From Bispira polyomma (Eukaryota), in NCBI GenBank assembly GCA_965649765.1, contig OZ287751.1, positions 70,680,001 through 70,744,000 on the forward strand: a stretch of 64,000 bases of DNA, given 5' to 3'. Below, piece by piece: positions 18,911 to 63,339 of the stretch; within the stretch, counting starts at the first letter, position 1, and every line of letters starts with the position of its first letter. The notes under the pieces are model-generated. The model made no database searches and was not told where the DNA came from. It was given only the letters and a program-made list of their open reading frames with translations. Position numbers and translations under genes: made by a program.

Positions 18911-20060
18911 CATACATGTAGCTCGGTCTATTTAAAAAGATTTTATGATCAACTGTGTCGAAGGTTGCTGAGAGATCATGAAGTGTTAATAGAACAACCT
19001 TCTTGTTATCCAGTTCAAACAGAATATCATTTACAACCTTCAATACTGCTGTTTCAGTGGAGTGACAGGGTCTGTATCTAGATTAATAAGGTTCATTTAG
19101 GCTATTTGAATCTTTCTATTACGGAATACAACCTTTTCTACGAGCTTTGAGAGAAAAGGTAGGTTTGAAATTAGATGAAAGTTTTTGAACACAGGATCAG
19201 CCCCTTGTTTATTGAGAATTGGTGTGACAATAGCTTGTTGGAAAAACAAGGCGTTTTTCCAGTTTGCAGAGACATATTTATAATGTTGGCTATGCAGGGT
19301 AAAAGATCAGACAAGCAATGCTTCAAAAGACAAGTAGGAATAGGATCCAAAGAGCAGGATTTGGATGGGGCTCTGGTAATGAGTTCAGCTACCTCATTCT
19401 GAGACAATGTCCGGAACTGTGTAAACTGAGCTGTAAATGCTCCAATAGAGTCCCCTCCCTTCGTTTGTCTACAGTCCAAAAAATTCTTTCTAATGTTATT
19501 AATCTTTTTAACAAAGAAACCACTAGAGCTATTCACCACATCCTGTCTGTAACTGTTCAGTGGCAAGAGTTGAGGAGCCTTAAAGTGAGTAAGTTGGGCA
19601 TCTGTCTTGAAAAGGGCCCAATGGTTGCCTTTGTGAGAGTCTATGTAGGTGCTGAAATACTCTGATTTGGCAGATCTTATGAGGGCTTTAACCCAGTTTG
19701 GCTGAGCCTTAAATGAATATCTGTCTGTTTTTTAGACTTCCTCCATGCCCTTTTAAGTTTTCTGAGATTTCACTTTTCAATCTTTATTTGGTCACATTTC
19801 CATTGTTGTTTTGGCTTACTTCTTATAAAGCAGTCAATAAGAGGTGCATAAATATCCAAAATGTTAGATAAACACTGATTGTATTGATCAACAAGTAAAT
19901 CCAGATCATTGGTAGATTTAGTAATAACTTCAGATGCCTGTATGTCCTGTCTAAAAAGGCCAATGTCTATGCTGTTAATTTTTCTGTAAGATACTCTTTT
20001 CTTTTCAGGAATAGGTTTAGGTAGATGAATATCAAAGATAAGTGACACATGATCTGCGAG
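18911..20060 (-). mobile_element. Decayed LINE (CR1/L2 group) ORF2 fragment, cut at the Polinton terminus
   Basis: KSCSLDPIPT.LLK, ISNLPFLSKLVEK, HSTETAVLKV.ND and DLSATFDTVDH motifs on the minus strand. Confidence 0.9.
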
Positions 20061-20062
20061 GT

Positions 20063-20770
20063 CTAAGGAATTATTGCTAGTCGTTTGCCTTTTCCACTTG
20101 GAATATGGTATCGGCACATATCTGCATATAAGATCTTCCTTGGAGCACTTGAGACACAACTCCAATATGCTCATATTTAAAGTAACACAGAAGAGTCAGG
20201 TAACACATTAAGCTATGCTAAATATAGAGTTTATAAACATCATCAAACAACAGGAGATTGAAAAAGATGTCACACAAGGTAGCCATTAGTAGTTTGGGAC
20301 CACAACACTGGACAGATGAAGAATGTGGACAGTGTGTACTGGGAAGTTTACTGTTATGTCCTCTGTTAATTGTGCAGTAAAAGTCCTATACCTATTTGAT
20401 GGACGGAGTATTTGACTGTATGTAAAGAATAAGTGTGGTTGTGTACTTGAGGACCTTCAATAAAATTGTTAATTACCAGTTTAGTTCCTGAAATTTGGAA
20501 TACTAGTACTATTACCATTTAAAGAAGCAGATTGTAGAAAATATTTATTTTGTAAGCAATGTAATCTAAAACATTTAGTTGAGTTGGAAGTTTAACACTT
20601 GAACTCAATATTTACACTACAATTGAAGATGTCAGTTCAATATTCTACTTAAACTCAATTTTTAGATATCACTTAAATTTACAAGTTGAAGCTACAATAA
20701 ATTAAAGTTCACCATAACTGTAAAGATGTCAAGAAAGGGAACTACTACGCTAGATCATGACCAAATCTAT
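20063..20770. repeat. Dispersed non-coding repeat; inverted copy at about 41500-42200
   Basis: Long reverse-complement similarity, e.g. TGTGGTTGTGTACTTGAGGACCTT vs AAGGTCCTCAAGTACACAACCACA. Confidence 0.85.
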
Positions 20771-20918: not shown

Positions 20919-22176
20919 ATATAGAAAATACATTTCTCCTTCCAGCTTTACTAATATTGCAGTGTCTACTTAGTTTTTTTTTTTGTTGGGTAACATGTTA
21001 CCTATTACACAACAAAGGTCCCTTTTATGGACACTAATAAGTCACATGCTTTATAGTGTAGCCAATCTGGTGCTTGGATTTGCTGAAATATAAAAATCCT
21101 GAAAAGGTTTTTTCAGCATCAGCAAACTTTATTTTTCAGAGTGCCATCTCCAAACTCTCGGCTACATTTTTTGTACACCTATAAGATTTTATGGTCACTA
21201 TAACCAGATGTATTGCAGTGGGATATAATATAGCCTTTGTGTTCAAACTGCCCTGGAGACGCTGAAAGTATTCTTATTGAATAGGAGTAAATTCTTAAGG
21301 TTAATAAATAAATAAAAATGAAAGAGTTGTTGTTTTTTGTTCCTTTTTCCCTAACACCCAATACTAATAACTTTAAAAACAAATACACATATTTTCCGCC
21401 AGATAATCAAGAGTAATTACATTGTCATTTCCATTTGCTTAGGTAGTCTCATATATTTTTGTAATATATTTCATACATACCTCTCCCTAATTAATAATTT
21501 TAGAACACAGTATTTGAAGTGAGATAATCCTTGTGTTTAATCGATTGACTGAGGATAACATTTGTCACTGTAACTGTTATATACAAGTATGAAGATTATC
21601 AATAATTTACATCACTGCCTCTTGTGATGAGTGTGAATTTTTAATAAGACAAGAAAAAGATCCCAATTGGGAAATATTAAAATTTTATTCTATGTTAGCT
21701 TTCTACTTCTATGTACATACTGAGAATAGGGCCACCTTAAATTGAAGACAAGTCACTTAAGGTGACCTCAACTTGAGGTGAATGTTACTTTTAGCAGAGG
21801 TAAGTTTATGGTGACCTTAACCTAAGGTGAACTTAACTTTTAAGATTGGTCATTTGAGTTGACCTTAAATTAAGTTATGTCAAGGTTGTGGTCATTTGTG
21901 TTGACCTTAAGTTTAGCTTCGTACATTACGTAAACCTTTGGGGTCACTTGTAGTGGCCTTAGTGCAAGTAAACTCTGCCAAAGTTATAAACTTTTCAAGT
22001 TAAGTTAAATACAAGTACATGTAAAAGTTATATTTAAGTATACAATGTTTACGTAAAAGAGATAAAATAAATGCAATATAAATATAAGGTGGCCCTAAAT
22101 ATAGACATGTAAAATTTTAGTATAAAATATATGATGGTTTTGTATTATAAGTGAGAAAAAGAGACCTCAAGCCCAA

Positions 22177-23154
22177 CTAGTAGGTAGTAGTGTTTTCAAG
22201 AGCAGCTTTGAAGGCCAGCGCCACCTGGGGAGAGGTATTATGGTCTTGGTTGATATATTTCCACACACAGTCCGACGTCCAGGTGCCATGGGCTTGGATA
22301 TCCTGTAACGGGACCTTTTGGTTGAATGCATATGTGGCACCTGAGCGTCGGAAGGTGTGGAAGGTTATATTTTCTGCCTGGCAGTGTACCCGTGTGAGTA
22401 TGGTTTGCAGATTTCTTCTGACGCTTGTGTCTGTAAGTGGGGTCCAGAGTGCATTGTGTTTAAATTGGACTAATGGTGAGTTGCTGGATCCAGGTGTTCC
22501 TAACTGTTGTGACTGGGCAGAGGGAGGAAAATGGTAGTAATGGTAATTTGATGATTCTGATTGTATTTTTTGACTGGAGTGTTTTCGACCATTTAACAAT
22601 GATGTGCATGCCAGGAGGTGCAAATAGGATGTCACCTCTGGAAAGCTGCTGAAGGGGTGTGTAGCCGGCTACACTATGTGGAACCAGATTGGATATCCTA
22701 AGGAATAAAAAGAAAGCGACCAGGTAAAGAGCCTTGAATACTTGGCCCATGTACATTGTGTCAGCAGTATTAATTATTTGTGTGAGAAGTGGTATGTCTA
22801 TGATGTTTTTTAGCTTGGCCCTAAAAGGCTTGTTAAGGGCAATTGCTTTTTGATAATACTTTAGTCGTGGGCCACTGAAGCAAGAGGTATTGAGCCCAAA
22901 CCGAGCAATTTTTGCTCTAATGGCAGAAAGGTAATTTGCAATGGATGAACTAGAGACATTGCTTGTAACTAATACTTCTTAAAAGGAGAGGATAACTAAT
23001 GGAGTAATTGCTGTGAGGCTGATGTTTGTGAAACAGGTAAAGGCCAGGAAAACCCTGAACATATTGGTATACGCCTTTTGTGTGAAGGGTCTAAAGGCTT
23101 GGTGTGTCCTGGAGGCTGCCTTGGCAGCCATGGATGCCAGTTGAGGAGGTAAAC
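22177..23154 (-). pseudogene. Tyrosine recombinase, copy 1 (frameshifted)
   Basis: FLRISNL, KWSKT, FHTFRRSGAT, HGTWTSDCVWKY. Confidence 0.92.
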
Positions 23155-23161
23155 CTACAAT

Positions 23162-25649
23162 TTAAATTGACCAATTAATATTCATGATATCATCATTCAC
23201 ATTTATCCATTGTGGTTCTGCTATGTATTCTCTTAGCCTGTTAGGGCTATCAGTGTACATATGCCATCTGGAGAGGTCAGCCACTGTATTATTTTTTCCT
23301 AAAATATGAATTGTGCTAAAACTGATATCTGCCATTGCCGTTTCCATATAGATGTTTCTGGCCATGGCCCCCAGTGTATGATCTTTTGTTCTGCCTGAGT
23401 TTAATATGGTAACAACAGCTTCATTGTCACAGTGTATTAATAGTCGCTTGTTGCCCCACTGCTTTTTCCAGAGCCTGACTGCCAATAGTATGTTTAGCAT
23501 CTCTAGGTGAGTAATGTGGTAGCTTTCATAGCCCTTGGGGAGTTGTTTTTTTATATACTTGATTGTTACAGCGGCCCACTAGACCTTCTAAACAGGCATC
23601 TAGTTCTATACAATCCGTGATTGGTGTATGATCGAAAAATGCTTTACCATTAAACGAAGGGAGAAATTCACAGAACCAGTTAAGGTCTTGGTGAAATTTA
23701 ACCCCTAGGTTGATTGTGTGTACAGTGTGGGCCGCACGTAATACTTCCAACATTCTGTTGAGAAAAACCCTTGATACTTTGACACATCCAGATATATAGA
23801 GCAATTTGCCTAGAAGTGATTGTAACTCGCGTTTTTTGCAGTTGCTTTTTGCTTTCCAGGATTTACACATTTTTTTGGGGGGAACTGAAACTGTAAAATT
23901 TTCCATATCAATTAGGACACCTAGACAGACTACCTGAGTGCTTGGGCGCACTATTTTCTTTTTGCTAATTTCGAAACCTAGCTCATGGAGAGTATCATGA
24001 AGGAGATCAAAAGAACGTTGTATTTTGGACGGAACACCAAAACCTATGATATCGTCAATATAATTTATGACGTCACAGTCGTGACGTTTCATTATAAAGC
24101 GAACTGCGTCACTGAGAGGCTGGAATATCGCACTACCATGGCGATACCCGAAGGGTAGGCATGTATCGACAAAGTATTGCTCATGTTTGAGACCTAGCAG
24201 ATTGTAGTCTGCAGGGTTGATTTTTACGTGCCTGAAGGCCCTGCTTATGTCTGTTTTGTAGAGCAAGGACCCCCGGCCAAGCTGACGTTTTTTTTGCGTA
24301 ATAGTGTCCACTGTTGGGAGTGTTAACACAAATGGTGTATCTAGGTATTTATCTCTGGCCACGGCCGCGTTTACTGAGTGACCTTGAGGGAAACTCAAAT
24401 CTATTATGACCCTTCTATGGGGTGCGCCTGGCTTTTCACGGGTCATGAACAGTGATACATGTAGATTATCACAAGGGGAGCTGAGTATGGACCCAACATG
24501 GCCCCGAATCTTGATTCTTCTTCCAGATAGGCGTTAATGTCATTAGGGAAATCCCTAGCTGATTTATGGTTTTCTTCCAGGTGGACTAAGGGATTATTTT
24601 TGTCGACGTCCAGCGGGAAGCCATATTTTATGATATTTCAATTGGGTGTCCCAATAGCCCTGTAATTAAAAATCCCATTTATTAGCTTTAAGCTGGGATT
24701 CTACCTGAATTTCTTCCCTCATGAAGTTGGGGATTTTAGAGTTTTTAATTTTTTCGTGCATAGTGAATACTGGCTCAGAACTGATATTTTTGAGATCAAA
24801 CACGGGGACTGTTAAGCCTCCCAAAGGAATAAAGTCAAATTTATCAGGCGTCTGCCTGTCCCAATTTTGGAAACACTTGTTTTGTTTGGCTAATTTTATA
24901 AGTTCCTTGCTTTTAGGCTTTGCATGTAACTCTAAGTCATATTTGTCAATGTTTTGTGTTTCACACTGATCCCCTTGCTGAATAGGTTTTGTAGACTTGT
25001 TATACCTTGCCTTTGTCATTTGGGTTGTGCCATTAGTGTGTTTAACTTGGGTGTCACTTGAGGGATTACTTTGTTCCTCTTTGTGTGTTTCCCCATCCCC
25101 CTCAGTGAGTGTTAGTAGGGGGGCAAATCTATTGTGGTCTCGACTGATGTTATTACCCCAATTAGTGCCAACACCTCCCAATTGTGGGAGTTGGAAAGTG
25201 CGACTTTCTGAACTATGGGTTTTGGTAAACAACCTTGAGGACTTTGTATTACAAAGGGAGGGGGGGAAGGGTGTTTTGTTGACACTTCGTTCTCTCTGGT
25301 GGGAGCTTGTTAAGCCCCCAATTGTATGAACTGGTGGCACGTCAATTGCTGAAATAATCGTATGTACATTTGATTCCACACTTTTTGGTTTGAATTTTTG
25401 ACGACCATACATTTTATGTCTTTTTACACTGCTCTGCAGATTCTTAACATTTATGTGGGGTGAGCGATAGTTGGAGGTACTGGGTGGTTTGTTTTCTCCT
25501 TTAAATGTTTTACCTTTAACTGAATTGACACCCTTTAAGACCGCTTGAGCATAGCTTTTTATTTTTATTTTAAACCAGTCCGCTCTCCAATTTTTGCTCT
25601 CGTTATTTACACACATGTTACTTTTGACTACTCTACTGGCCCTATACAT
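23162..25649 (-). pseudogene. pol: Pol (long disordered N-terminal extension, RT, RNase H), copy 1
   Basis: RVIIDLS, DISRAFRH, LPFG, YIDD, ELDACL, HCDNEAVV, NTVADLSR. Confidence 0.92.
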
Positions 25650-25677
25650 GACATTTGTGTTAACACTTTCTATGTTT

Positions 25678-26400
25678 TTAAACTTTTAACATTACATTTA
25701 CTGTCAGGACCTGAAAATCTACTTTTGGGCACTGCAAAACTGCAGTGCCCTTTTCGTTTTTTGCACTGCTGTTTTTTCTACAGTCTTTAGCCGAGTGTGG
25801 GAAAGAGCGACCTGTAGTGAAGCAATTGGCACACACATGTGTGTATAATTGCCCTTTGTTTTCATGGTCTCCTTTTTGGGGACAAGTGCCCGTCTGAAAA
25901 AATTTCTCACTACTATTCTTGGTTGAGCCCACGGACCCAGTTTGACCCACTAAAATTTTCTGGGCATGTGCCCTTCTAACACGATCAATTTTTGCAGTAT
26001 CTGCCCAAGTTATTTTTCCCTCTTCCATTTTACATGTTAATACGGCATGACTTCCCTTAGCTGCTGACCAAGAGAAATCGTGAGAATCCTCCATTAGCTC
26101 TGACATGTATTCGAGCATTTGGTTTTTTGTTTCTAAATTTGCTTCTTCTTTAATCATGGCACTAAAACCTGCGACCCATTGGGCCATTGATATTGAGTCA
26201 TATGACAAGTGAGACTTATTGTTACCCCCTAAAATACCTGCTTTTTAACCCAAATAGTATCTGAACCGCCATGTTGTGAGCGGAACGTACCTGATTCGTT
26301 AACTTGTTGTACTACCTGAGTTTGTACTGTTCACCATGGAAATACTGTTCGTTTCCTTTATCAGGACTTTGCATTTATCATTTATAGGCTTTTGGTGATT
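25678..26400 (-). pseudogene. gag: Gag-like protein with C-terminal Cys/His knuckle, copy 1 (5' part deleted or decayed)
   Basis: YDSISMAQWVAGF, LMEDSHDFSW, IDRVRRAHAQ and C.....H......H.C..C motifs shared with copy 2. Confidence 0.8.
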
Positions 26401-27149
26401 TCCACCACACGCCTCACAATCGTAAGTTTTTGTGGCAGCCATAACACTGCAGACATAGAATAAGGCTGTTTTGATACGTGTGACTATTGGTAAGAGGTAA
26501 TTTGTCAGAATTTTGAATAAACGTTTGATATAAGTTAGAATGAATGGCCTGGTAACTTTCCTCTACTTTTGCTCCAACAAGTGGAGCCAATGATCGCAAG
26601 ACTCAAAACAGAGTAATAAGACACAGGAGCGCTGCTACACTGGATTCATAAGCACAATCGTCCCAATTCAATGAGAATTCAGGTCAATTGGTCAAGGGAT
26701 ACATGCTAGTATACTTGTTGAAGCACTGACCTTGGTAGCCCCTTCCCGCTACCTTGCAGTTTCTCTAATATACAAATGGTATAGCATATCAGATATATTG
26801 TAATATAATATTTCACTTATAGGCATTCATCTCTTAATGATAAGAAGATGTTAATTTATATTAACAGAAACTATCATAAGGATAATCTTTGTGATTAATC
26901 GATTACCCAATGACAACGTCAGTGATAATTGTTATACACTAGTATGAAGTTTGTCAATAATTTTCATGTTACCTGTTTGCTTGAACCTTGTGACACCTTT
27001 TGTTTAAAACAGAAGTTTCTTTTCAAAGGAGTCCCTGTTCATTTATATCAATAGAAACTATTAAAAGGATATGTAAAAATATTTACAGGCATGTAAGCTT
27101 GAACTGTCTTTTGTTAGTTAGTATCAAATATCTGCCTGCATAAAGCCTT

Positions 27150-28130
27150 GTGGCAGTAATTTGATACTAGTGTTTAACATGACACATAGGCTCAAGTAGT
27201 TCTGGGTAAAAAATCCATCTATTTATTTGATGATTCTGTAAACAAAATGCTCATTATTTAGATGTCACTGTAACAAATACAATCTATCCATCTATATGGT
27301 ACTACAATGTCACCAGTTCCAGTGAGTCTTGTAATCTGTGAAAAACAACAGTTTTCTGTGAATCTAATAAACAAAGTAGTGTTCAAAGTGCCATATGAGC
27401 CCAAGTAAAAATTGTTTATTTTTTTGCATGTCACAGTAATAATTAAAATTTGTCTATGTAAATAGGTAATATAATATAATGTCTTGGGAAAAATTCTAGA
27501 GGGATTTTAGATCTGTAAAAAAACTGTTAAATCAATGATTAGGCTAGATAAATCTATTTGTTTGATTAATTATTTACATGGATTTACATAAAATCTATAT
27601 ATCTATAAGATAGTATTGTTAATTATTTACACATCACAAAATGTGCAATACATAGTCTCTGGACAGGTTCTAGTGAGCTTATTTTGTATCTGTAAAAATA
27701 AAATAAGTCAGAGTGACACAGACAGTTGCCACCTTTGATCCCACACCACATGAGTACATTAAATAATTGAGGTAATACCATCATCCAACCTACAACTCTT
27801 TTGGGATCTTTAAATGTCAGTATGTCAGTCTTTATGTCTCTGACTAGCACATTACATTCAGACACAACTGGTGGGTTTTTTGGGGGGCACTTAATTACTC
27901 TGTGATGAATGAATGTTACATGCTTTATTTATACATGTGTCTTAATGCANNNNNNNNNNNNNNNNNNNNNNNNNNNNNNNNNNNNNNNNNNNNNNNNNNN
28001 NNNNNNNNNNNNNNNNNNNNNNNNNNNNNNNNNNNNNNNNNNNNNNNNNNNNNNNNNNNNNNNNNNNNNNNNNNNNNNNNNNNNNNNNNNNNNNNAATTG
28101 ACTTTTTGGGGTTACAGCCAATGGGAAAGA
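27150..28130. repeat. Dispersed non-coding repeat A; inverted copies at about 52335-53170, 61780-62290 and 62900-63290
   Basis: Shared blocks such as GGGATCTTTAAATGTCAGTATGTCAGTCTT in all copies. Confidence 0.88.
27950..28095. other. Assembly gap (N run)
   Basis: Run of n bases. Confidence 1.
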
Positions 28131-28509
28131 CAAATGAGAGATAATGTAGCAAAATTTTACAAGGGTTCAGTTCACAATAAGGTTGGTTTAAGCTTTTTCT
28201 TATCAATTTGTAGTATCAGCCTGTATCAAACTTGTGTGGTTTTTTTTAATAATTCAAAGAAGTATGTGCTTTTAATTTTAACTGTACGTAATTTTCTTTG
28301 TAGATTAAACAAGAATTTGGGGAAATCTAGCACAATTTTGGTGACAGTTTGACTAGAAAATTTATATATATTTTGAAGATATTTAAATATATTTCTGCTT
28401 AATGTGTGCCTGGTATGTTACAGCCAAATCGGAGTAATGTATTCCAGACAATCATTTCAAATCCAAATTCAAAAAGCTTTGTCAGCTATTCCATAGGTTC
28501 CTATTGTGG

Positions 28510-28625: not shown

Positions 28626-28729
28626 ATCATTATATTTTAAGAATTCATACAATAAGAGTGTGTAACAACTGGGGCTTTACTACCCTATTTTATGTTTTCA
28701 TACCTCTTTTAATTTGTTAATGTGTGATC

Positions 28730-29733
28730 ATGCCTTCTAAAAAGGAGTTTCATTGTAGTAGTTGCTCAGGAAAGCATGAACGATCTGTAGGAAAGAGATG
28801 TCGATTCAATCTTGATGCCAGTGTCGCCGATGATGTGCCCACCGTTGGTCTTGCTTCTGAGGTAATTACTGATTCCGTCTCTGAACAAATTCTACAGCAA
28901 TTACGGTCACTCAACAAGAAAATGGAAAGTATGGACCAACTTGTGCAGGTGACAGAGGCGGCGCTGTGCACACCCAGCGCCCATAAGGCATGTAGTACTT
29001 CTAATGTTAATACTAATGTTAGCAGCAGTGTTGCCAGTAATGTAGTCAATTCAGTAGAGGCGGTAGTACCTTCCTTAGATTTCCTACGATCAAACGAAAG
29101 TTTACAGTCCCAAGTCGACCAACGACTGCTGCAGTTACAGCAGCTTAATGAGCTCACTAGAGGTAAACTCAAATCCCAAAGAGGTGGTACTGAGGCCCCT
29201 ATTAAAAGAAGTGTGGACTGGCCACAAAATTTTGTATTGTCGGGGGTTAAGAAGGTACGTCCTACATATGACGACCTGTCTCTAGTGCAGTTTACTTCTG
29301 GGTTTATAAGGTGTGTACAAGAGCAAAAGGTTCCCAAGGTCAGGAAAGCCATGTTAGAGTATTTGGCCAATTTAATGGATGACGCCCACGATTTCTCGTG
29401 GGATGCAGCTAAGGCATCTCATGCTATCCTGTTAACAAATATGGAACTAGACCACCTTAAGTGGACTGACACGGACAAGGTTGACCGTATACGCCGGGCT
29501 CATGCCCAACGCCGTGTTTCTCATAGTTCAAATGGAGCCAGTGCTTCCAAGGCCAGTTCTGGTAGTAAAATTAAATCAAAAACAAAAACCTCAGGGGTAA
29601 ACTGTCGGAGGGTAACTGTAAGTTCAATGCTAGCCACCGAACCTCAGGACAGTGGTTTAAGCACTGCTGTGAAACATGTGAGGGTCCTCACCAGACTAAG
29701 TTGTGTACAAAAAAGGGTATAGCAAAAAAATAG
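28730..29733 (+). pseudogene. gag: Gag-like protein, copy 2 (frameshift near the C-terminus)
   Basis: N-terminal C..C...H......C, KSQRGG, WPQNFV, YDDLSLVQF, LMDDAHDFSW, VDRIRRAHAQ. Confidence 0.85.
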
Positions 29734-29809
29734 GGAGCCACTACAGTAATGCAGTGGATAAGCCAGTGTTTCAAAGACTGTATATAACTAAGAGTTCAAA
29801 GATTTTAAA

Positions 29810-32060
29810 TTGTGTGATAAAATGTATTTTAAACAGTATATATGTTTTAACAGAAATGTGAAAAGGTCTTATAAAGACATGGTTGTGAAAGGGAAACTTT
29901 GTGTTCCCAGAGGTCTCGAGAAAGGCTCAGTGGTGGGCGAAATTGGGGGGAACAGTGTAGTAAAAAATTGGTTGGTTACAAACACAAAAAGAATCTGCAC
30001 TAAAGTGAGGGACGTTACATTTGGCAAGGGGTTTAACAACAAGCATGTAAACAAAACTGTGCAGTCCCCCAAACAGTCCGTCAGCAAGCAAAAAACTCAC
30101 CAGAACAAAAGAAATAGTATTGATTGTCAACGGGGTGTCAAAAACAAATCAATGAGTGTAGAGAAACCTCTCGGTGTGGATACTTCATTGTCCCCCTCCA
30201 AGGGTTTTTTTGCCTCGAGTGAAAACAATGGCAGTGGGTGTCAGGTTTTCCAATTACCCCTCCACAATAGATTTGCTGTGTTAAACACACCCGACGAGGA
30301 CGTGGTGGGTGTTGCTGACACGGGCTATTGTGTGGGGGCTCCCCCACGTGTAAAGACTTGTACAAAAACACCTAAACAAACAGAGTTAAATAATTCTGAT
30401 GACAAGTATGCATTGGCAGTTCAAAGATCTTCTGATGAAAGATGACGTCTTAAGGATGCCAACCAATGTGACACTTATAAATTGTGGGATATACAAAACA
30501 GTGGGAAGTTTGGCTTTATCCCCCTCGAGTCTTGAGGAAAACCTATAATAGACAAATCAAATAACCTACTACCAATAGATGTGTTTACACTTCACAAGCA
30601 TCTTAAACTGGATGGGCGCCCTAATTATAGTGGACTTCAGGTCCCTGTGGCTTCTCAACTTAATGCCTCCATGTGGGCTGAGTATTTGAGGGGCTACTGG
30701 GACTGGAAACTCCCCCTGCTTGTAAAATATAGGTTTCCACTAGATTGTGTGAATGATCACGAGTTTAAGTCAGAACTTAATCACACCTCAGCTATTCAGT
30801 ATCCGACTCACGTAAAACAATATTTAGAAGAAGAATGTCAGTTGGGTGCCATGTACGGGCCCTTTGAGGTGCCACCAATTTTAAAATTGCATACCTCCCC
30901 CTTCATGACCAGGGAAAAATCAAGCTCAGTTAACCGTCGAGTGATCATTGATCTCAGCTGGCCTAAAGACCATTCAGTTAATGCAGCTGTGTGTCCCACT
31001 TCTTATTTAAACAAAGAATTCATGCTAACTTACCCGTCAATAGACACTATAACTTCACAAGTTATTAAAATGGGCAAAGGTTCACTGATTTTTAAAGCTG
31101 ACATCAGTTGCGTCTTTAGGCATGTGCCTATGGATCCAAAAGAACTGAACTTGTTGGGGTTGTATTGGGATGGTTACAATGTGGACGGTTCGCTGCCCTT
31201 CGGGTACAAGCATGGCTCGGCCATATTCCAAAGGTTATCGGATGGTAGCAGATATATAATGCACAAGGAAGGCTACCATATTACGAATTATATAGACGAC
31301 CTCCTTTGTAGCTTGATTCCGTCGAAAATATACCATACCTATCGCCGGCTTCAAGCCCTATTGGCTGAACTAGGTTTGACCTTGAGTGACAAAAAATTGG
31401 TCCCTCCAGTGACCCGGGTAACTTGTCTCGGTATCGTTATAGACAAGGTCGATTTCACCACCTCCATCCCAGATGAAAAATTACAAAATATCCAAGCCAT
31501 GTGCGACAATTTGGCTGGCAAAAAATACTGCACAAAAAGGGAACTCCAGTGTCTACTGGGTTCGCTCCTTTATGTATCTAAATGTGTCAAGTACTCAAGA
31601 TTTTTCTTGAATAGAATGCTTCACCTCCTCAGAAGTAATCATAAGAGCAAACATTTCAAAATTACTCCGGATTTCTATGAAGATTTGACGTGGTTCAGAA
31701 CTTTTTTTGAAACAATTCAATGGTGTCTCTTTTTTCCACCATAATCCCACAACTGCCCTCATAGAACTGGACGCTTGTCTGACAGGTATGGGGGAGGGGT
31801 CTATGGACAAAATGTGTACACTTTGCCTATACCTGCTCGATTACAGCATCAAAATATCGCTTCTTTGGAGATGTTAAACATTTTTGTGGCAATGAAATTA
31901 TGGGGTGACCCGTGGCAGGGTCAGAAGGTCCTCATAAAATGCGACAATCAAGCTGTGGTCAGTGTCCTTACCAATGGCAGGACATAGTGTCCTTGCCCTG
32001 TATTCACGTAACATATTTATGCTAGCTAGCCATTTTGATGTAGAACTAAAAGTTATTCAC
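29810..32060 (+). pseudogene. pol: Pol (N-terminal extension, RT, truncated RNase H), copy 2
   Basis: SPFMTREK, RVIIDLSWP, LPFG, YIDDLL, ELDACL, KCDNQAVV. Confidence 0.92.
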
Positions 32061-32993
32061 AGTAGGTCCACTGCTAGATCTTACAGAGCTATGTACAGAG
32101 TGTATCTGGCTTATGCTGCCTTCATGGATCGGCCTATAAATCAGGTGACTGTGTCTGATCTTCTATGTTTTTTGGAAGTTTTACAATTTTACTCAAATGT
32201 CAAACCTGCACACATGGCTAACTATTTGTCTGATATCAGAGCCGAATCCATTGTGCATAATGTTCAAATACAGGCTTTCAGTGACCATCGTCTTGCCTAT
32301 TACCAAAAGGCTGTGCAAATGGCTGCCCCTCTCAATGTTAAACTAAAAAAGGTAATAGATATCCCCACTCTGCAAAACATTGTAACAGTTTTGAATACAA
32401 CTTACATGGGGCTTGTTTTTAATGCAGTCTATCTGCTCAGTTATTTTTCATTTCTCAGGCTATCCAATCGTGTACCACATTCAGCTGCTCAATTCTCTGC
32501 TCTAAAGCATTTAGCTAGGGCAGATGTCATGACCCATCCGGATAAAGCCGTTCTGTTGATTAAGTGGTCAAAAACAATGCAAAACAACAAGCAGATCAAA
32601 CTTTTGACCATCCCTCATTTACCGGGCTCACCATTATGCCCTGTGGGGTCACTGGAGGCCATTCTGGCCCTCACTCCATCAGGGCCTAACTCACCGTTGT
32701 TTCAAATTAAAGTCAATCACAAATGGGTGCTTCTAACTGACACCAGAGTGCGTCTCCACCTTAAAGATGTATTACTTAGACTAAAGTTGGAAAACTCTGT
32801 GCTTACCTTCCACGCTTTCCGTTGTTCAGGTGCCACTTTTGCTTTTAATCATAACGTTAGCATACAAAATATACAAAATCATGGCACCTGGACTTCGGAC
32901 TGCGTGTGGAGGTATGTCACAGATACTGTTGATGCTGGCCACCAAGTGGCTGATTCCTTTAGGCGTCATCTATCTGCATCTGTCATTTCCTAA
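32061..32993 (+). pseudogene. Tyrosine recombinase, copy 2 (N-terminus deleted)
   Basis: FLRLSN, KWSKT, FHAFRCSGAT, HGTWTSDCVWRY. Confidence 0.9.
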
Positions 32994-33739: not shown

Positions 33740-35460
33740 ATATATAAACTCTGCACAAAAAGTCCTGCCCATATCTATTTTCAACACAATTTTATAGCTA
33801 CACTAGACGTCTTAGATGCCACAGTTCTGAAAAACAAAAGTAGGTAGGTGGTTTACAAGCACTGTTTTGTTCCACCATTGGATTTTGTCATCGTGATAAG
33901 ACCTAAGCTGTTAAAAGCCACTTAAAATTCAAATAAAATTCAAATTCTAAAAATTCTAAAGATACTGGATTAGCCCTTCTAACCAGATCGGGTAAAAACA
34001 TAACCACCAAGATTTTTTTTTAATTTACAGATTCGTGTGCAACAAAAATGATTTCTTTATGCAAAGCTTTTACTGCATTGCACAGATTTGTAGAAATTTT
34101 CCCAGATTCGCTATAATTATGGAAGGCATTATAATCGGATTAAATAAAATTGCATATTAAACAATAAGGGTCTTAATAGAACACTAAGCTTTGGCTGGAA
34201 TTACTCAAAACAATTGACATAAATTTTGTATGCGTTACAAAAAACATTCGGCTTAAATCAACCCAAACCTACTAAATTACTGCCTAAGTAGTACATTTAT
34301 AAATCTAACCTCATCTTCCAGTCCATAAAGAAGTCCCTGACATGTCTTTACAGGGGCACTGTGTAAAGCGATACCATCACCTGTTAGTCACAACAAAGCC
34401 AGCAAATAGACCAGTTTCCGGGGGTTGTTCCACAATCTACTTTTAAACAATATAAATATTCTCTTCCTTTGCAAAAATGGATTATGTAAGGCTGAATCTA
34501 TGCAAAGGAAAATGAAAAAAAGTAAGCAAACTCTTTGGAAACACAATCATTTCAAAAGGTGGAAGAAAAAAAAATATTTTGGAAAAGGATATTTTTTTAA
34601 TGTAAATGTGGTTCCAAACAATACAACTGCAGCTGCAAATGATATTGAGTAAAATGGTGTAAACTTTTTGTTTTGTTACCTGTCTGCATAATAAAAATGG
34701 GAAATTGCACTATTTTGGGTATATCAGCCAGACAATTTAGCAGACTGAATCGATGTCACCATCTAAATTGGGCTAACACCTGTTGATTTTGTGTTTCTGA
34801 GATTGTCATTTAAAATAACAGTTTTAATGTCAGTCCTAGGTTGAAGAAAAAATTAGATTACTGATAGACATTTCCATATTTTGTGTATGAATTTATTATG
34901 AGTATTTATTTGTATGAATTGTGTAATTTACAAATTTGAATGCCTTACAGCTATCACTATGTGCCAAATATCTAGCTGACAGATTAATTTCACAGATTTC
35001 ACAACAACTTAACTAGATTTGTGTCTGTTCTAATATAATTCACCTCTAAAGACAGTGGGATAGAATACAACTACTTTCTTTGAGTGGCAAGGTTCGGCAA
35101 TGGGCTAACACCTGGACCCCAACTCAATTAAACTGTCCTTGTTAAAGAAAGAGTAACAACCATCAAGACATGAAGTCAATTTGCCTCTGGATCGCCATAT
35201 TAGATCACAAATTATTTGCTGAATTTTCTTATTTGCCTCTTCAAATGAATGTCTCTTAAAGATTTTCCATTTGACTTATTTTAAAATCTCTTTTAAAAGA
35301 TTATTTAACATTCCTTCTTCCATTCTTTGACATTAAAAAAACTTTTATTTCTAAAGATCTGTGATTCCATAAATATCACAGGCTACAAGCTACTCTGGCA
35401 GCTTTGTCATTAATCCTAGTTAATGGTTTAAGTTCCTAAGGGTTAATGTAGTGTGTGAAA
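33740..35460. repeat. Dispersed non-coding repeat B; inverted copy at about 59455-61400
   Basis: Colinear reverse-complement blocks, e.g. AGTCCCTGACATGTCTTTACAGGGGCACTGTGTAAAG vs about 60647-60685. Confidence 0.88.
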
Positions 35461-36245
35461 GAGTTATTTAGTTTTTTGTCTTTTACCGTCAAATGTGGTA
35501 AAATAAAATAAATAAGACAAGGCAATAAATAAGTACAATACTGCAACCTACTGTATGATCCCTTAAGTGACTGTCACACATACACAATCTTATCTCCCGA
35601 CCGCTTCCGATTGGACAATTGGTAGACATCGGGAGAACAATCAGGACACTCGGGGAGTTGTTTCTACTTATCAGGGTCAATTGGGACACTCGCGATCACT
35701 CGTGTAAAATAACTAATATGCTAGAGAACCTCAGCAATTGGATGCTCTGTGGCCAATAAATCGGGCTTGATTGGGGTCAATCGTAAGCTGCTAACAAGTT
35801 ATCTTAACCTTATAACGACCTATCATTCCGATCGTCATCTAAATCGGGGAAAAATATTGCCATTTTGGAAAGGATTATTCACCCAAATCCCTCCCAATTG
35901 GTCGGAACCATTACCAGTTATCGTCTACTTCTTCTAAGTTATTCTGCCAAATGTTAAGGACAGGTCTTTAGAAATGCCCCGAGTGTAAAGATAACTCTGA
36001 ACAAGCAGCGGGTAAATTGAAAAGAAGCCCCGACTGCACAGATACCTTGGGAAGAATAACGATAGGTGGGGGAGCAACAAAAGATAACTCGAGGGCAAAT
36101 GGGGGGCGGAGCTGACTGTATAAAAGGATGACGGCACTCTCGATTTTTATCAGATTCATTCAAGCTGTCACCGAGTCAACATCTACTTGTAATTTTTAAT
36201 ATAGAGGAATATAACAGGCTAGTTTTTCCTATAAAGTCATCCAAC

Positions 36246-47742: not shown

Positions 47743-48719
47743 TTAGAGTGAGTGGAGAATGATGGATGCAAATGTGGCAGGGACAATAGCCACTGCCTGT
47801 GAGGTAGACTGTAAGTGTGACCACACGGCGGAACTTCGCCATAATCCGTGAGCCATGATGTTTTGGAGGGAGACATTATTATTGAATGCTAGTGTAGCTC
47901 CTGATCTACGGAAAGTATGAAATCCATGTATAGTATGGTCAATCCCTATGTGCTGTAAAACTGTTCTAAGAGCTGCCCTAATGTGGGAGTCCACTAATGG
48001 GTGGAAAGGTGGTGTCCCTGTCACAAACAGTGGTGAAGTAGGTGAAAGTTTCCTAGCTTTTATGAGTTTGGAAAGTGCCAAAACTGGACATAAAAGAGGA
48101 GATTTTATGGTTGGCAGTTGTATGGCATGTGATTTGGTCCTATCTTGCATGTTTTTAGCCCATTTGATTATTATGTGGACTCCAGGTGGTCCAAATATGA
48201 GGTCCTGCAGTAGCAGGTGCCTTGATGGGTCAAACTGTTTTCTAGAGTGAGGGGCTATATTTGACATGCGCAAGAACCCATAAAATGCCACCAGGAATAT
48301 TGCTCTGTACATTATAGGATCGTTAAGAATGTCACATGCCTGTGAAATCTTGAAAATTTGTTTTAAATCAAAGACTCCTTTTGGGGCTGGCCTAAAAGCA
48401 GAATTGTGAATCAAACTGCGTGTATACAGTGAGATGGAATTATGTTCCATAACTTTGTAATTTAGGTTGTATTTCAAGCACATGAATTTCAAAGCAGCCA
48501 AATAATTGTTGACCACTTTGGGAGAGATATTGTTTTGGGTTAAATACTCCAAGAAAGCTAACACAGAGTGAACACTGATGTCCTGTATGTGTACATATTG
48601 TAGGAACGCTAGAAAAGTTCTGAACTGATTGGAATAAGCTGCAGTAGTAGCAGGTCTTAATGCAGAGTCAATCCTATCAATGGCAGCCAGTCCCACAGAG
48701 TCTGAAGAGGTAGTGGCAC
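47743..48719 (-). CDS. Tyrosine recombinase, copy 3 (open frame; catalytic Tyr position reads His)
   Basis: FLRMSNI, KWAKN, FHTFRRSGAT, HGLWRSSAVWSH. Confidence 0.9.
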
Positions 48720-48725
48720 CTGAAA

Positions 48726-50752
48726 TTATACATTAAGATCTAAATTAAAGTAGGATATTGGGACTAGTTTGCGTTTGTATTGGCTCAGCAATTGTAACAT
48801 CTGTTCCTTAGGTGGGTTATCTGAATATATTCTTGACAAAGCATCTGCTATTACATTAGTCTTACCCTTAATATGTTGAATATCTATAGTAATGTCGTGT
48901 AATGACGCTATAAGCCAAATGTTTCTTATGCATGCTGCTAGGAAGGAATCCTTAGTCTTGCCGGTCTGTACGACTAGAACTACGGCCATGTTATCGCAGT
49001 GAAAAGTGACCCTTTGATGAGCCCAATCCTTAGCCCAAATCTTTAAAGGTATCACTATATTAATCATTTCTAATTGTGTGATTGGAAGTTTTTGTTGGTA
49101 TACATTATATACTGGGGTATAATATACCTGATCACCCCAAATTCCCCCAAGTCCAGTCAAGCAAGCATCTAAGTGCATTTCTTTGTCTGAATCTGTAGGT
49201 AATGGGTTTATGAATGTAATGCCATTGTAGTCATGCAAAAATTTCATAAACCAGTCTAGGTTATGTTTTATGTTATCTGTCATCTTAAAATGCTTTGCGC
49301 CTGGGGATGCCCTAAAGACAGCTAAAAGTCTGTTTACAAAGCACCTAGCAGGTTTTACGCACTTGTGAATGTATAACAGTTTACCCAAAATTGACTGAAA
49401 ACTTGAACGTGAAAATCAGGATTTTGAACGTGCTTCTATACAACTTTGAAATATCTCTGCAATTTTTTCTTTGGTAATGCTAATTGTGCCTTCGTTAATA
49501 TCAATATCGATGCCCAGGTAAGTCACCCTCGTCGATGGGGAACATACCTTGTCTGGGTTCATGGGCAGATCGAGGTCATTCAGAAGGTCACATAAAGTTT
49601 AAATCCCGCTTCTGCCTTAGATTTGTGGCAGATGCAAACGTAATCGTCGATGTAGCAGTGCAACTCAAAACCAGCTTTTCGCATGTAGTCTGCTATTATA
49701 TCTGAGCATCTGTGAAATACTGCACTGCCGTGGGCCCAGCCGAACGCCATGGCAGCGTCAATGTAATACTTATCCTTATGCTGTATTCCAAGTTTTAACG
49801 CATCAACCGGATCAACTCTTAAGTTTTTAACCGTGCGAGCCACGTCTACCTAGCTACGTAAAGCCAAATTTTAAATACTGCACTATTATCTTATCAGAGT
49901 GATTTTGAGTGATTTTCTCCCAAACACTTATGTTCAGTTGAGATGTGATGGGAATACAGTTGCAGTTTCAATAAGACTTTTGACATTGTCTGTTTGTGCC
50001 GAACACCTGTCTGGTCCAATAAACTCAAAGTCATTCTGAGATAGCTTTATAAAACCTACGTCCTTAGAATTTTCAGAAATATCCTTAGCCTTACATTTTG
50101 AAGAAGAAGTGATTTCCATTTCAGGGCTGACCAGCCCGTCCATGTCATTTGTATTCGACATTCACACATGTGTAACACTTGTGTTAGTTGTGACAATATC
50201 TTGTGGCTTACCAGCGTGTGTGTTTTTTATCACACGACTGATGCCATCTTGATCAATGATTTTATCAATTATATCACACATGTAATCTGTGTAGTTACAC
50301 TTGTAATCCTTATAGCATGCCAGGTCTCTTTTATAACTATCATAATCCGTGTTTGCTTGTTTTTGTTGTAACTCGGTGTATTGATAGACATTGCTTCTGA
50401 TAAGTACCAACATTGTTACTGTTACAGTACTCGACACCTCGAGTGGTATACCCGGTATACCAATTAGCCGAATGTATCTCTTTTCATTACCCCTGTTATT
50501 TACATAGCAAAAACCTGACATACTATTTAGTGGACCAAAGTTCAGGTGTACCACCTGATAACCCATTGTGCCCTGTTGCACACAATAGGTGTAATTAATA
50601 TTGGAAACCACACATGAAACTTTAGTATAACTCTCATATATCAGAGCATTATGGTCATACAAGTCATTCTGTTCATATACATGACATACAGGTGATTGGG
50701 TTGTACTTTCCCAATAGCTATCACTTTTTCTATTAATATTATGATTTACCAT
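48726..50752 (-). pseudogene. pol: Pol remnants (extension, partial RT, RNase H), copy 3
   Basis: MAFGWAHGS, YIDDYV, HLDACL, HCDNMAVV, ADALSR; N-terminal RT missing between about 49860 and 49930. Confidence 0.88.
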
Positions 50753-50790
50753 TTTCTGATTGTCATTTTCACAGACTACTTTATCATCAC

Positions 50791-51822
50791 TTATATGTGT
50801 TTAGCAGTGGTTACAAATGTGCCTGTACTGCCCGTGGTCACTGTCGTTCGAACAGGATCCGTTATTGTAGAACTTACACACGGTTTTGGGCTTCTGTTGA
50901 TTCTGAAGACTTGCGAAATCTGTGGGTTCACTAGTGCCAACTGGGATGTACTTAGCCCATTGAGTGCCCACTGTGTCGAATTCGACCAATCTAGTCGTCC
51001 TTCCTCGAGTTCCTGCATGTTTGCCCCCCAGGCAGCTCGTACTGCTGGCCAGGGTAGGGACGCCGCGTCTCTAAACGTGTAAATCATCTGATGGATCATG
51101 TCTCTCATCATAGTCGGGTCTGATACCTGAGCTACGTTCGCTAATTGCCCAGCCGCCCATTGGGGAAGCGTTAACTCATCAAAATTTGGCCTTTTCTTAG
51201 CTGTGCCCCCCAGCCAGCCCTCATTCGCCCATCTCGACTGGGGGTCAGCGACACAAACGTCGGTTGTATTATATCTGCCTGATTTATGTCTAAGTGAGGT
51301 CTTACCTTGTGACAAGTCTTGTCTCAATTGCGTATCATAGGCGGCTAGTCGCTGGTTCACAGCAGCAGTCACATCAGGTATGGTTTTTAAGACGTCCAGT
51401 CTCGGTACTATCCCGTTACGCTGGTAGTCGTTGTGTGATCCATGTTGCGAGGCCGCTCGGCCGTATAATGAGTAGGGCAGTGTTGGTCGCAGATTCTGTG
51501 GTAGTATCGGGGCTGTATGTTGCTCATGTTGTCGTAAATCGAGCATGGTATCGTTTCTAGCCGGGGACGTCAATGGAGTAGAGTTTGACGCTCCTTTCAT
51601 CTCAACTCTGTCCAACCGTTTATTAATGTCTGCATTAGCAGATTCGAGGCGTTTGAGAATACCCATTACCTCTTGCATGTCATTGTTACCATTACTGGTT
51701 GGTGATATGTCCTCCTGCAGATTCCTAACGATCGGGTCGGCAGTCTTCTTTTTCCTCGTTATAGTTGACGGCTTTTTTCTAGCCTGTGGAGCACTACCGG
51801 GAACTACCTTACTTTTCCCCAT
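50791..51822 (-). pseudogene. gag: Gag-like protein, copy 3; CCCH-type finger in a shifted frame
   Basis: KSGRY, FDELTLPQW, DAASLPWPAVR; alternative frame CKFYNNGSCSNDSDHGQYRHICNHC. Confidence 0.8.
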
Positions 51823-52199
51823 ACTCTCTGTGTTGTAGTTTATAGTATAGTATATTTGTAAAGTTATCTCAACGTAAAAAAATAAAATCCTAAAATAATT
51901 TTCACAAATACAAAATCACAATGTTAACTCCTTGAGATCTTGTACAAAATGGTGCTCAACTTGGGGCAGCATATTCAATTTCAGAGAGGGGGTGATTGGT
52001 GATTGGTTATTGATTCTATGTGGGATGGACAGAAAGTGGAACAAGAAAAATGCTTTGAAAAAGGGGTTGCTAGTGGGAGGGTGAACTGACACAGTAGGCC
52101 CCTAAAGTGGTCATGCAAGTCAAACCCTTCAGAACCCTTGACTGTGTATAGTTGAAACTGAAAGCACATATTTGTTTGAATAAATTAAGAAACCCCTTA

Positions 52200-57100: not shown

Positions 57101-57479
57101 TACAACCTCAGAGCATGACGTTCACTTACAATTTGATCGGAAACATTCTAACCCAAAACACCCTTGTCACTAGTAGCAATTGTTACTCGCCTGGACTATG
57201 TGGATGAGAAGACTGCAGTCTTTACCTTCTGCACACTGACTGTTCTGGTAGTTACACCTCTTTCCAGGAGAAGCCTTGTCTGAACTGACAAGTATATTTT
57301 ACCTTTATCATGTGGCATAGTAGGAAGTAAAACTAAAAACAATTAAAATTGGAATAACATGTAAATATTAAATTAAGTAAATAGCCACCTAAGTATACAA
57401 AATGTGCAATGTGTTGCAATGCTTGGTGGTGAAAAAAACCAGCATTATTTAATTGCTTATGCTATTGTTAGCCATATCT

Positions 57480-58850
57480 GACAGGGCCACCTGCCCTACA
57501 CAATGAATTGTCAGAAATGAGCTGGTCCTCAGAAAGCTACCCCGCAAAATTATCAAGTTGTGGAGTTTGATCCATATAATTAATTGTCACATCGGTATAA
57601 TAATACCACTTGGAATTTTAGAAATAAACGAAGTAGTTTGAAGATATACTTTTTAAAATACAGTCGATTAGCCCAAGAATATAGTGAAACAGTAAAGGGG
57701 TGACCGTTTATTTGAAATAAATCAGTCTTTGACTTGACCTTCTCTTTTGTTTTAAACTTGCATTTTGGAAACAATTAAATTTTTGGGGTTTTACGTGTAA
57801 TAAGCCAAGAGGAAAATCCTTTCCCTTTGTGATTATTTTTGTTTTATTTACAACAGGGCGAGTGGACACTCTGCCATTTCTCTCAATATCGCCTGTAGCA
57901 GGTTTTTTTGAGCTACAGGGGCTCAGTTCTTTCCCTTTTAGCACGTCTCTATACGACTTTTTCACACTTTTGTTAGACCATGGAAATTGGTTAAAATACA
58001 GTTTATCGAATAATGTAAAATCTTTAAACTCAGAATTATATACAACCCTAGAAAACGTCCCATCAGTCTGTATTTTCACATCTACTGCATAACTGCATTG
58101 GCCCCTTAGTTTTTTGACGTCTCCTTTTTAGGGTACAACTTTGTCTGATGCACAGAAAAATCATTGGCGTCTTTGTCTGATGCACAGAAAAATCATTGGC
58201 GTCTTCCATTAAGTTTGCTAAATGATAGGGCATAGCTTCTCGCACCTCAGGAGTTTTCAACCTGCGAGTGCAAATTCTCATTGGAGCAAGACATCTAAAG
58301 AAGGTACAACAGCCTCAACTACTGGCTCAGTTACATTACTGGTACTACCGACACTTGACTGAATAGAAGCTATACATGCCTTCCTGGCGCTGGGTGAACA
58401 CAGCGCCACCTCTGTAACCTGTACGAGTTGGTCCAGGTTATCCACATTTTTATTTAACGACTGCATTTGTAAAAAAATTTGTCCAGATACAGAGTCAGCG
58501 ATTTCTGCAGTAGCATGGCCAACTGTGGGCACATCATTGACGAGGCTGGCATCATGATTATACCAGCACCGCTTTCCAACAGGTAGTTCATGTTTCTCTA
58601 GACACATACTACACTGATACTACTTTCTAGGAGGCATATTTTTTTTCATAAAATGAGGTTAAAATACTAAAGTAGGGTAGTAAAAGTAAAAGTCCTTATT
58701 GTAAAATACTCTAAATGTAAAATAATAATAATAGTGCTGGGTGGGTGCCAAACCCTTTTAAACTTAGCCTCGTCACCTCAGGTGGCCTAATTGCCCCTAT
58801 CAGCCTGGTACCAGAAATGAGGGGCTCTCGCCGAGGCATCAGCCCACTAA
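57480..58850 (-). mobile_element. Tyrosine-recombinase retrotransposon copy 4: internally deleted 5' remnant closely related to copy 2
   Basis: VGKRC, DVPTVG, DSVS.QI, EAVVPSLD and LANLMEDA.DFS match copy 2 gag; promoter block conserved. Confidence 0.85.
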
Positions 58851-59009
58851 ACCCTGTCCATGATGTATTTAAAAATATAATAATTTGCATTTTAGGTCTA
58901 AAAGGAAGAAACCACAGATTTTTTTTTAGTGAAGTAGAAAGATTTGTCATATAAATCAACTTAATAATATTTAACCAATATTAAATTACACAAGTTTGTT
59001 CTATCAGAT

Positions 59010-63290: not shown

Positions 63291-63339
63291 GCGTATATTA
63301 TCCACATATAAATATATATATTTTGTAAATAATTAACTA

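Follow-up and report, generated by a model that had tools for sequence, protein, structure and literature searches.

The slippery heptamer A_AAA_AAC is used for -1 ribosomal frameshifting in MMTV and HTLV. It is described as one of the most shift-prone heptamers for mammalian ribosomes in the part of PMC5009743 that deals with such sites. Two stop codon readthrough signals are set out in the relevant section of PMC3159437: the Type II motif UGA-CUA, and the combination of UAG-G with a pseudoknot that serves the gammaretroviral gag-pol junction. Among retroelements of the DIRS order, the Ngaro superfamily is delimited in the defining passages of PMC8547959, PMC9210276, PMC4157794 and PMC3266345. 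For these elements, a -1 shift at the overlap between RT/RH and the tyrosine recombinase (YR) gene was proposed by Poulter and Butler in 2015, as quoted in a passage of PMC13003380, and ORF1 is reported in a passage of PMC8547959 to decide the integration site. The expression of pol and of the start-less recombinase in DIRS-order elements is little studied. A full-text search of the DIRS/Ngaro literature returned no gag-pol slippery site, no UGA-CUA readthrough and no Gag-YR splice, and the older Ngaro papers or Repbase could contain part of this. In this work, comparison of a heptamer-hairpin site in animal DNA with the DNA and proteins of its relatives indicates that the site is very probably a programmed -1 ribosomal frameshift cassette of Ngaro-like retrotransposons.

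The window, i.e. the whole 64-kb stretch of DNA analysed here, has a GC content of about 30-45% and the character of animal genomic DNA. Four decayed retroelements are found within it (Table 1). The gag ORF of copy 2 is broken ahead of the knuckle, and most of the copy 4 gag is deleted. The gag-pol junction of copy 3 is not readable, its knuckle being short and its heptamer absent; in this region (50165-50800) the knuckle breaks off early at CNHC-TAA and a same-frame ORF leads on from there toward pol, reflecting either a deletion or a same-frame junction. In copy 2, a deletion (31938-32100) fuses the end of RNase H to the start of YR and removes the pol stop together with the acceptor region.

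Table 1. Features of the four retroelement copies, in positions of the window
Feature	Position	Strand	Remark
Copy 1	about 22.2-26.4 kb	minus	decayed element
Copy 2	28.7-33.0 kb	plus	decayed element
Copy 3	47.7-51.9 kb	minus	decayed, more distant element
Copy 4	57.7-58.6 kb	minus	fragment, rest of element deleted
Copy 1 gag 3' part with zinc knuckle	25678..26244	-	extends beyond the stop position of the other copies
Copy 1 heptamer A_AAA_AAC	25756..25762	-	gag codon phase A-K-N
Copy 1 10-bp hairpin	25727..25750	-	5 nt past heptamer
Copy 1 pol pieces	23162..25685	-	N-terminal region 24666-25685, RT 23526-24533, RNase H 23162-23578
Copy 1 acceptor-like site	23154..23170	-	just past pol stop, weak pyrimidine tract, phase 1 to YR frame
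Copy 1 tyrosine recombinase (YR), in pieces	22177..23154	-	
Copy 1 upstream direct repeat, A1-like	26881..26967	-	78% over 91 nt to 21523-21612
Copy 1 downstream direct repeat, A2-like	21523..21612	-	B pair not found
Copy 2 whole	28721..32993	+	gag 28721-29722, pol pieces 29792-30445 and 30536-31744, YR 31938-32993
Copy 2 heptamer A_AAA_AAA and gag stop	29724..29733	+	
Copy 2 eroded hairpin	29738..29757	+	one mismatch
Copy 3	47743..51915	-	gag 50791-51915, pol pieces, YR 47743-48732
Copy 4 -1 frame ORF	57708..58127	-	through heptamer into pol N-terminal region
Copy 4 heptamer A_AAA_AAC and stop	58106..58115	-	
Copy 4 eroded hairpin	58082..58101	-	two mismatches

Several other features were noted in the surroundings of these copies. 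A fragmented Maverick/Polinton-like block (724-9912) contains an rve integrase (724-1455), pieces of a protein-primed DNA polymerase B (4583-9912) and further ORFs, and ORF fragments at 12021-12620 and 19171-20195 resemble, by eye only, the ends of non-LTR retrotransposon proteins. An assembly gap of 146 N lies at 27950-28095, between copies 1 and 2. The flanks of copy 2 (27168-28456 and 33789-35564) recur adjacent and in the same order at 59347-63336, and those of copy 4 (58846-59082 and 57112-57792) recur joined at 39025-39943, in both cases with 70-85% identity; these joined flanks could represent solo A-B repeats or unoccupied copies of repeats targeted by the elements. The upstream flank of copy 3 is common with that of copy 2, although their gags are distant.

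The elements have gag, RT/RNase H and tyrosine recombinase ORFs in this order on one strand. Pfam detects RVT_1, RT_RNaseH/RVT_3 and Phage_integrase in order in copies 1 and 3, and RVT_1 only in copy 2; gag, which matches no Pfam family, was assigned by its position, knuckle and homologues. The pol of copies 1 and 3 ends directly past RNase H, with no methyltransferase of the kind that DIRS1-like elements carry in pol, and RT and RNase H are the only Pfam families, again with no methyltransferase, in the best 120 of 274 long Pol homologues. A pol without a methyltransferase after RNase H indicates Ngaro rather than DIRS1 or PAT, following the definitions given in passages of PMC3266345, PMC9210276 and PMC4157794. 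Of the split direct repeats (A1-ORFs-B1-A2-B2), copy 1 has an A-like pair only and none were found within copies 2 and 3; the full pattern is present in two of 12 self-compared relatives (L063 and L033, neither placed on the tree). Because the split repeats of the window are only half seen, the elements are named Ngaro-like; the RT trees discussed below are composed of relatives only.

The initial annotation had described a candidate -1 frameshift signal conserved in three copies at the gag-pol junction, and it had given the positions and letters of the heptamers, and the positions of the stems, in copies 1, 2 and 4 correctly. The copy 1 stem is, as described there, a perfect 10-bp hairpin behind a 5-nt spacer; it has a folding energy of -20.4 kcal/mol, ranks first among the 990 canonical heptamers on both strands of the window, and reaches a z of -3.55 that none of 200 shuffles equals. 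Homologous stems are present in the two other copies, but they do not stand out statistically: the copy 2 hairpin ranks 7/990 (z -0.25, equalled by 75/200 shuffles), and that of copy 4 ranks 211/990 (z +1.52) and is not part of the 60-nt MFE fold. The conservation in three copies thus holds for hairpin homology, with statistical support in copy 1 only. The three stems align without gaps on a core of eight pairs, of which four are unchanged, one is compensatory (G-C/C-G) and three are each broken in a single copy, as expected from independent decay. The check for compensatory changes thus yielded one supporting pair between the window subfamilies, against three broken ones.

Downstream of the heptamer, the -1 frame has no stop over its first 25 codons in copies 1, 2 and 4, a condition that holds in 24% of random 25-codon window frames and is seen here in a set in which copies 2 and 4 are related; the +1 frame has five, three and two stops, respectively, over the same distance. 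In copy 4, the -1 frame runs unbroken into a pol-like ORF (135 codons), as had been claimed. That frame ends after 30 codons in copy 1 and after 45 in copy 2, by which point it has run into the beginning of the pol ORF, which lies in a different frame; the copy 1 pol ORF now sits in +1. These two copies had been said to need a later decay indel to rejoin pol; for copy 1, none between the hairpin and the pol ORF is among the 12 of 25 indel rows listed. As the copy 1 pol is now in +1, the window alone cannot fix the frame, and its evidence taken alone is suggestive, not decisive. The heptamer of copy 2 is in phase with the zinc-knuckle frame and not with the long, broken gag ORF. Copy 1 has no stop directly past its heptamer; in contigs from three runs of one study (9, 9 and 13 contigs), a stop lies one codon past the copy 1 heptamer in 92-98% of the depth, which makes the longer gag end of copy 1 unusual. 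A raised contig depth over the junction bin was not counted as evidence, because the parts of a gene cannot be ranked by contig depth. Rfam frameshift families had no match in 21-34 kb of the window, and an alpha_tmRNA match in the copy 2 gag (18.9 bits, gathering 50) was taken as chance. The copies in the window are decayed and probably no longer make Gag-Pol.

The phase of the cassette can be read directly in the DNA of wider relatives. Using the Pol alignment, 81 loci were collected, comprising the best 80 of 115 metagenome-contig matches and one genome-contig match; metagenome contigs searched with the gag alignment gave no relatives, nor did viral contigs, for which the queries were one RT sequence and the gag and Pol alignments. 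Junctions were read from both gag and pol ORFs in 31 loci and from the pol side in the other 50, and 41 of the 81 gave no readable junction. A_AAA_AAC is found at the gag end in 14 of these 81 loci, with the gag stop 0-12 codons past it. In ten of the 14 (L009, L016, L020, L022, L023, L026, L036, L046, L065 and L079; eight distinct at 90% identity) the heptamer lies, in -1 phase, in a frame that stays open as far as RT. Five of these ten have a truncated or interrupted gag upstream, and for them the gag phase rests on the adjacent stop. The remaining four (L042, L043, L053 and L072) are broken downstream, the -1 frame of L053 closing after four codons and the others later. All unbroken carriers of A_AAA_AAC therefore have pol in -1, where pol in frame 0 or +1 of intact copies had been named as the outcome that would speak against the signal. 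An in-phase A_AAA_AAC occurs at only 2 of 7,748 codon positions in gag bodies, compared with the last 15 codons of 5/5 gags with a -1 junction versus 0/17 same-frame gags; no other canonical heptamer is in phase in the last 15 codons of those 17 either. Seven distant loci have other junction layouts, including gaps, long +1 overlaps and, in L080, a -1 arrangement without a canonical in-phase heptamer.

Downstream structure is less constant. A 3' structure 5-9 nt downstream is seen in copy 1, and folding with z below -2 was obtained in 5/14 cassettes at 60 nt and 1/14 at 40 nt, with positive z in L016, L020 and L046. The subfamily of L026, L043 and L065 has a 15-pair stem about 10 nt downstream of the heptamer, with one compensatory pair. 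A stem-loop as a family-wide feature does not withstand this comparison, being non-significant in 9/14 cassettes at 60 nt, and a universal downstream hairpin was rejected. In the sequences compared, the heptamer appears as the constant element and the stem as specific to subfamilies.

The proteins of the window's own clade give a second reading of the junction. Among proteins of at least 330 residues, 16 Gag homologues were found, of which nine end in xKNE-stop and one in xINE-stop, the other six being truncated or shifted; the xKNE and xINE ends follow a variable stretch and align to A-K-N-E of copy 1. Pol N-termini were read in the best 120 of the 274 long homologues. Nine of these 120 have HC-x(1,2)-AV at the N-terminus, which is the copy 1 hairpin read in -1 (G-H-C-x-x-A-V-P), and eight others have KKR..CP..G, where KKR, like KKL, is A_AAA_AAC read in -1. 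In total, 17 of the best 120 start with the -1 reading of the cassette, and neither pattern has a match in 88,734 control residues. One member of the HC-x-AV group, P0130, reads VKKLGNHCRNAVD, in agreement with copies 2 and 4 when these are read in -1; on the tree it is placed with copy 2. Among 48 N-terminally complete Pol homologues, 23 start with M-P (background P 3.9%); these starts would correspond to gene callers beginning at the Val codon of the hairpin 3' arm (A-V-P in -1). The N-terminal -1 readings imply that, in relatives with a long unbroken pol, the pol ORF extends back across hairpin and heptamer in -1. For this clade, gag and Pol are unpaired protein records rather than genes joined on the DNA of one intact member. 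When stems were back-translated, peptides of the KKR group could encode stems of 12.0 bp, against 8.6 bp for control peptides, a comparison that is partly circular for this group and circular for the HC..AV group. The proposed Gag-Pol expression by -1 frameshifting is thus supported, by sequence inference, from the motif phase in the DNA of relatives and the Pol N-termini of the window's clade.

Frameshifting does not account for all relatives. In 19 loci, gag and pol lie in one frame with a single stop between them, so the -1 mode applies to the A_AAA_AAC loci and not to these. Sixteen of the 19 are unbroken to RT; L044 is broken further on and was classed by context, and L001 and L028 have short gag tails. 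All 19 differ mutually at 70% identity. The junction stop is TGA in 19/19, with C next in 16/19; the following triplet is CTA in 12, CTT in two, and CTC, CCA, AAT, GAT and TGT in one each. TGA ends pol in 0/15 of the same-frame elements, compared with 14/69 over all loci. The occurrence of TGA, mostly as TGA-CTA, at frame-0 junctions points to readthrough. Local structure within 100 nt past the TGA reaches z below -2 in at most 1/19, and no Rfam family, SECIS included, was found at gathering score in 20 loci scanned, 17 of them same-frame. One intact same-frame TGA-CTAG element (L081:1-7824) comes from a bacterial MAG contig; the bin has most likely picked up host DNA.

On a 33-row RT/RNase H tree, four rows of which were classed as -1 by protein only, the two modes require three changes, all forced by well-supported branches. 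In none of 200 bootstrap trees does either mode form one side of a branch, and the window's clade is the sister of a readthrough clade. Constraining the -1 class to a single group was rejected for a 29-row set used earlier (p-AU 4e-64); the -1 group for this test was named from junction sequence, though following sight of a first tree, which was a quick one that included two long rows. The later trees omit L081, copy 3, L017, L025, L043, L061, near-duplicates and most ENA rows. This distribution suggests that the -1 and readthrough modes have replaced each other at least three times.

The recombinase appears to be expressed in a different way. Relative to pol, the YR frame of 35 near relatives is -1, 0 and +1 in 14, 13 and 8 cases, and such a scattered frame means that a fixed frameshift cannot express YR in them. 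Readthrough at the pol-YR junction was likewise rejected: YR is in frame with pol in 13/35, but the stops are mostly TAA or TAG, have no CTA context, and the frame is scattered. The best pyrimidine-rich YAG past the pol stop is uniquely in phase 1 in 26/35 near relatives and tied in four more, compared with 1/10 in the distant group; the best donor near a conserved gag position is in phase 1 in 22/23 rows, with one tie and with two near-identical loci included. These splice scores are crude consensus counts made for this analysis, and the acceptor figures replace an earlier count that included duplicates and used a window from upstream of the stop (phase 1 in 24/39 near and 5/13 distant relatives). 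Donor-like GTs in phase 1 are also present at 29163 in copy 2 and at 51305 in copy 3, the latter with a phase-1 acceptor-like site at 48719. The idea that YR is made as a spliced Gag-YR product, already put forward in the initial annotation, gains support from this phase match of donor and acceptor. A search for longer YR proteins yielded a single protein, which had an RT domain, and no Gag-YR fusion; this absence is weak, since the searched gene calls are unspliced. In the distant group, YR overlaps pol in -1 in 9/10. In eight loci (L049, L052, L055, L056, L064, L066, L074 and L080) this overlap is about 100-170 nt and a phase-1 acceptor is absent. The distant group matches the layout described for classical Ngaro elements, and its gag-pol junctions are gaps or long overlaps.

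From these features we infer the following expression scheme. Most ribosomes would end Gag at the stop 0-12 codons past A_AAA_AAC. A minority would pause, which in this subfamily would happen at the stem 5-7 nt downstream; with the AAA and AAC codons being decoded, these ribosomes would shift one base backwards and go on to translate pol. The product, Gag-RT-RNase H, would be present in a constant, low proportion relative to Gag. Sister lineages would obtain an equivalent fusion by UGA readthrough, mostly at UGA-CUA. For the recombinase, splicing would remove pol from the RNA and fuse the coding region of the Gag N-terminal part to YR.

Other ways of expressing pol were weighed against this scheme. 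A quite improbable one is that pol has its own RNA or start, through an internal promoter, a splice into pol or leaky scanning, while the heptamer and stem serve packaging, termination or priming. The element does seem to use splicing for YR, the downstream structure is not conserved across clades, and copy 1 has an acceptor-like run just past the hairpin; this run is absent in copies 2 and 4, and a separate pol RNA leaves unexplained why the heptamer occurs only with pol in -1 and TGA-CT only with pol in 0. Termination-reinitiation, with restart on an AUG overlapping the gag stop (AUGA or UGAUG), a free Pol and an incidental A-run, is very unlikely as a general explanation. It could draw on the MRHC start of 6 of the best 120 Pol homologues, which corresponds to an ATG over the K-N-E-TGA stop (codons inferred from protein), and on TGATG directly past the heptamer in L016, L020 and L036. 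The overlapping ATG is absent, however, in the three copies of the window and in L009, L022, L023, L026, L046, L065 and L079, each of which has retained the heptamer. In ten Pol homologues the frame stays open in the upstream direction, through KKR or KKL, and reinitiation has no need of a phase-locked heptamer. Reinitiation fits a minority (6/120 Pol starts, one locus family) and may coexist with frameshifting.

Transcriptional slippage on the six-A run, which would add a base and so join gag to pol, has very little probability. An A6 run is present in every -1 junction, and bacterial IS elements are known to use slippage as an alternative, according to a passage of PMC5009743. It would require neither a codon phase nor the final C of the heptamer, but three separate clades all have the phase locked, and 13/14 folded sites retain the C. 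RNA polymerase II is not known to slip readily at an A6 run. For the same-frame class only, the TGA at all 19 junctions could also be taken for a selenocysteine codon or an altered genetic code, a reading to which we give hardly any credence: the Rfam scan with SECIS gave nothing at gathering score in the 17 of these 19 loci that it covered, the +4 context is of the readthrough type, and the long pol and YR ORFs of unbroken members contain no in-frame TGA. Programmed -1 frameshifting at A_AAA_AAC, with readthrough in the sister lineages, is the explanation retained.

Taken together, the sequences make it somewhat probable that one Ngaro-like clade has swapped two unrelated recoding modes at least three times, in every case settling on A_AAA_AAC or UGA-C(UA), with YR made only as a spliced Gag-N/YR fusion. 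If true, the Gag N-terminal part of the fusion would steer the recombinase directly, providing a mechanism for ORF1-determined integration, and the clade would form a natural replicate series on the interconversion of recoding modes. The scheme of Gag, Gag-Pol by recoding and Gag-N/YR by splicing is a testable plan for a widespread animal clade. It comes with a large set of natural cassettes, of the -1 and the UGA-CUA type, from marine-type hosts, and with recurrent changes between frameshift and readthrough, which are rare in one clade. Annotation pipelines would score such junctions as pseudogene lesions and so call intact elements defunct.

In comparison with known systems, the elements resemble the Ngaro superfamily in the order of gag, RT/RNase H and YR on one strand, in the absence of a methyltransferase and in the split repeats of two relatives. 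The -1 overlap between RT/RH and YR proposed for Ngaro, as quoted in the literature, fits the distant group and not the window's clade, in which the YR frame is scattered and splice signals are kept. The cassette appears analogous to those of retroviruses and Ty3/gypsy elements in heptamer class, position at the gag end and purpose and, for copy 1, in spacer and stem, whereas the element is Ngaro-like, has neither a protease nor a DDE integrase, and uses a tyrosine recombinase. Unlike retroviral env, the third gene here is seemingly spliced to the N-terminal part of Gag. The same-frame junctions share with Type II readthrough (UGA-CUA/UGA-CGG in alphaviruses, tobraviruses and furoviruses, as given in the section of PMC3159437 on this motif) the TGA in 19/19 and the following CTA in 12/19, but they stand at a retrotransposon gag-pol junction, and the 100 nt that follow show no local 3' structure. 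As mechanisms, these are textbook cases; what is new is their setting and their pattern.
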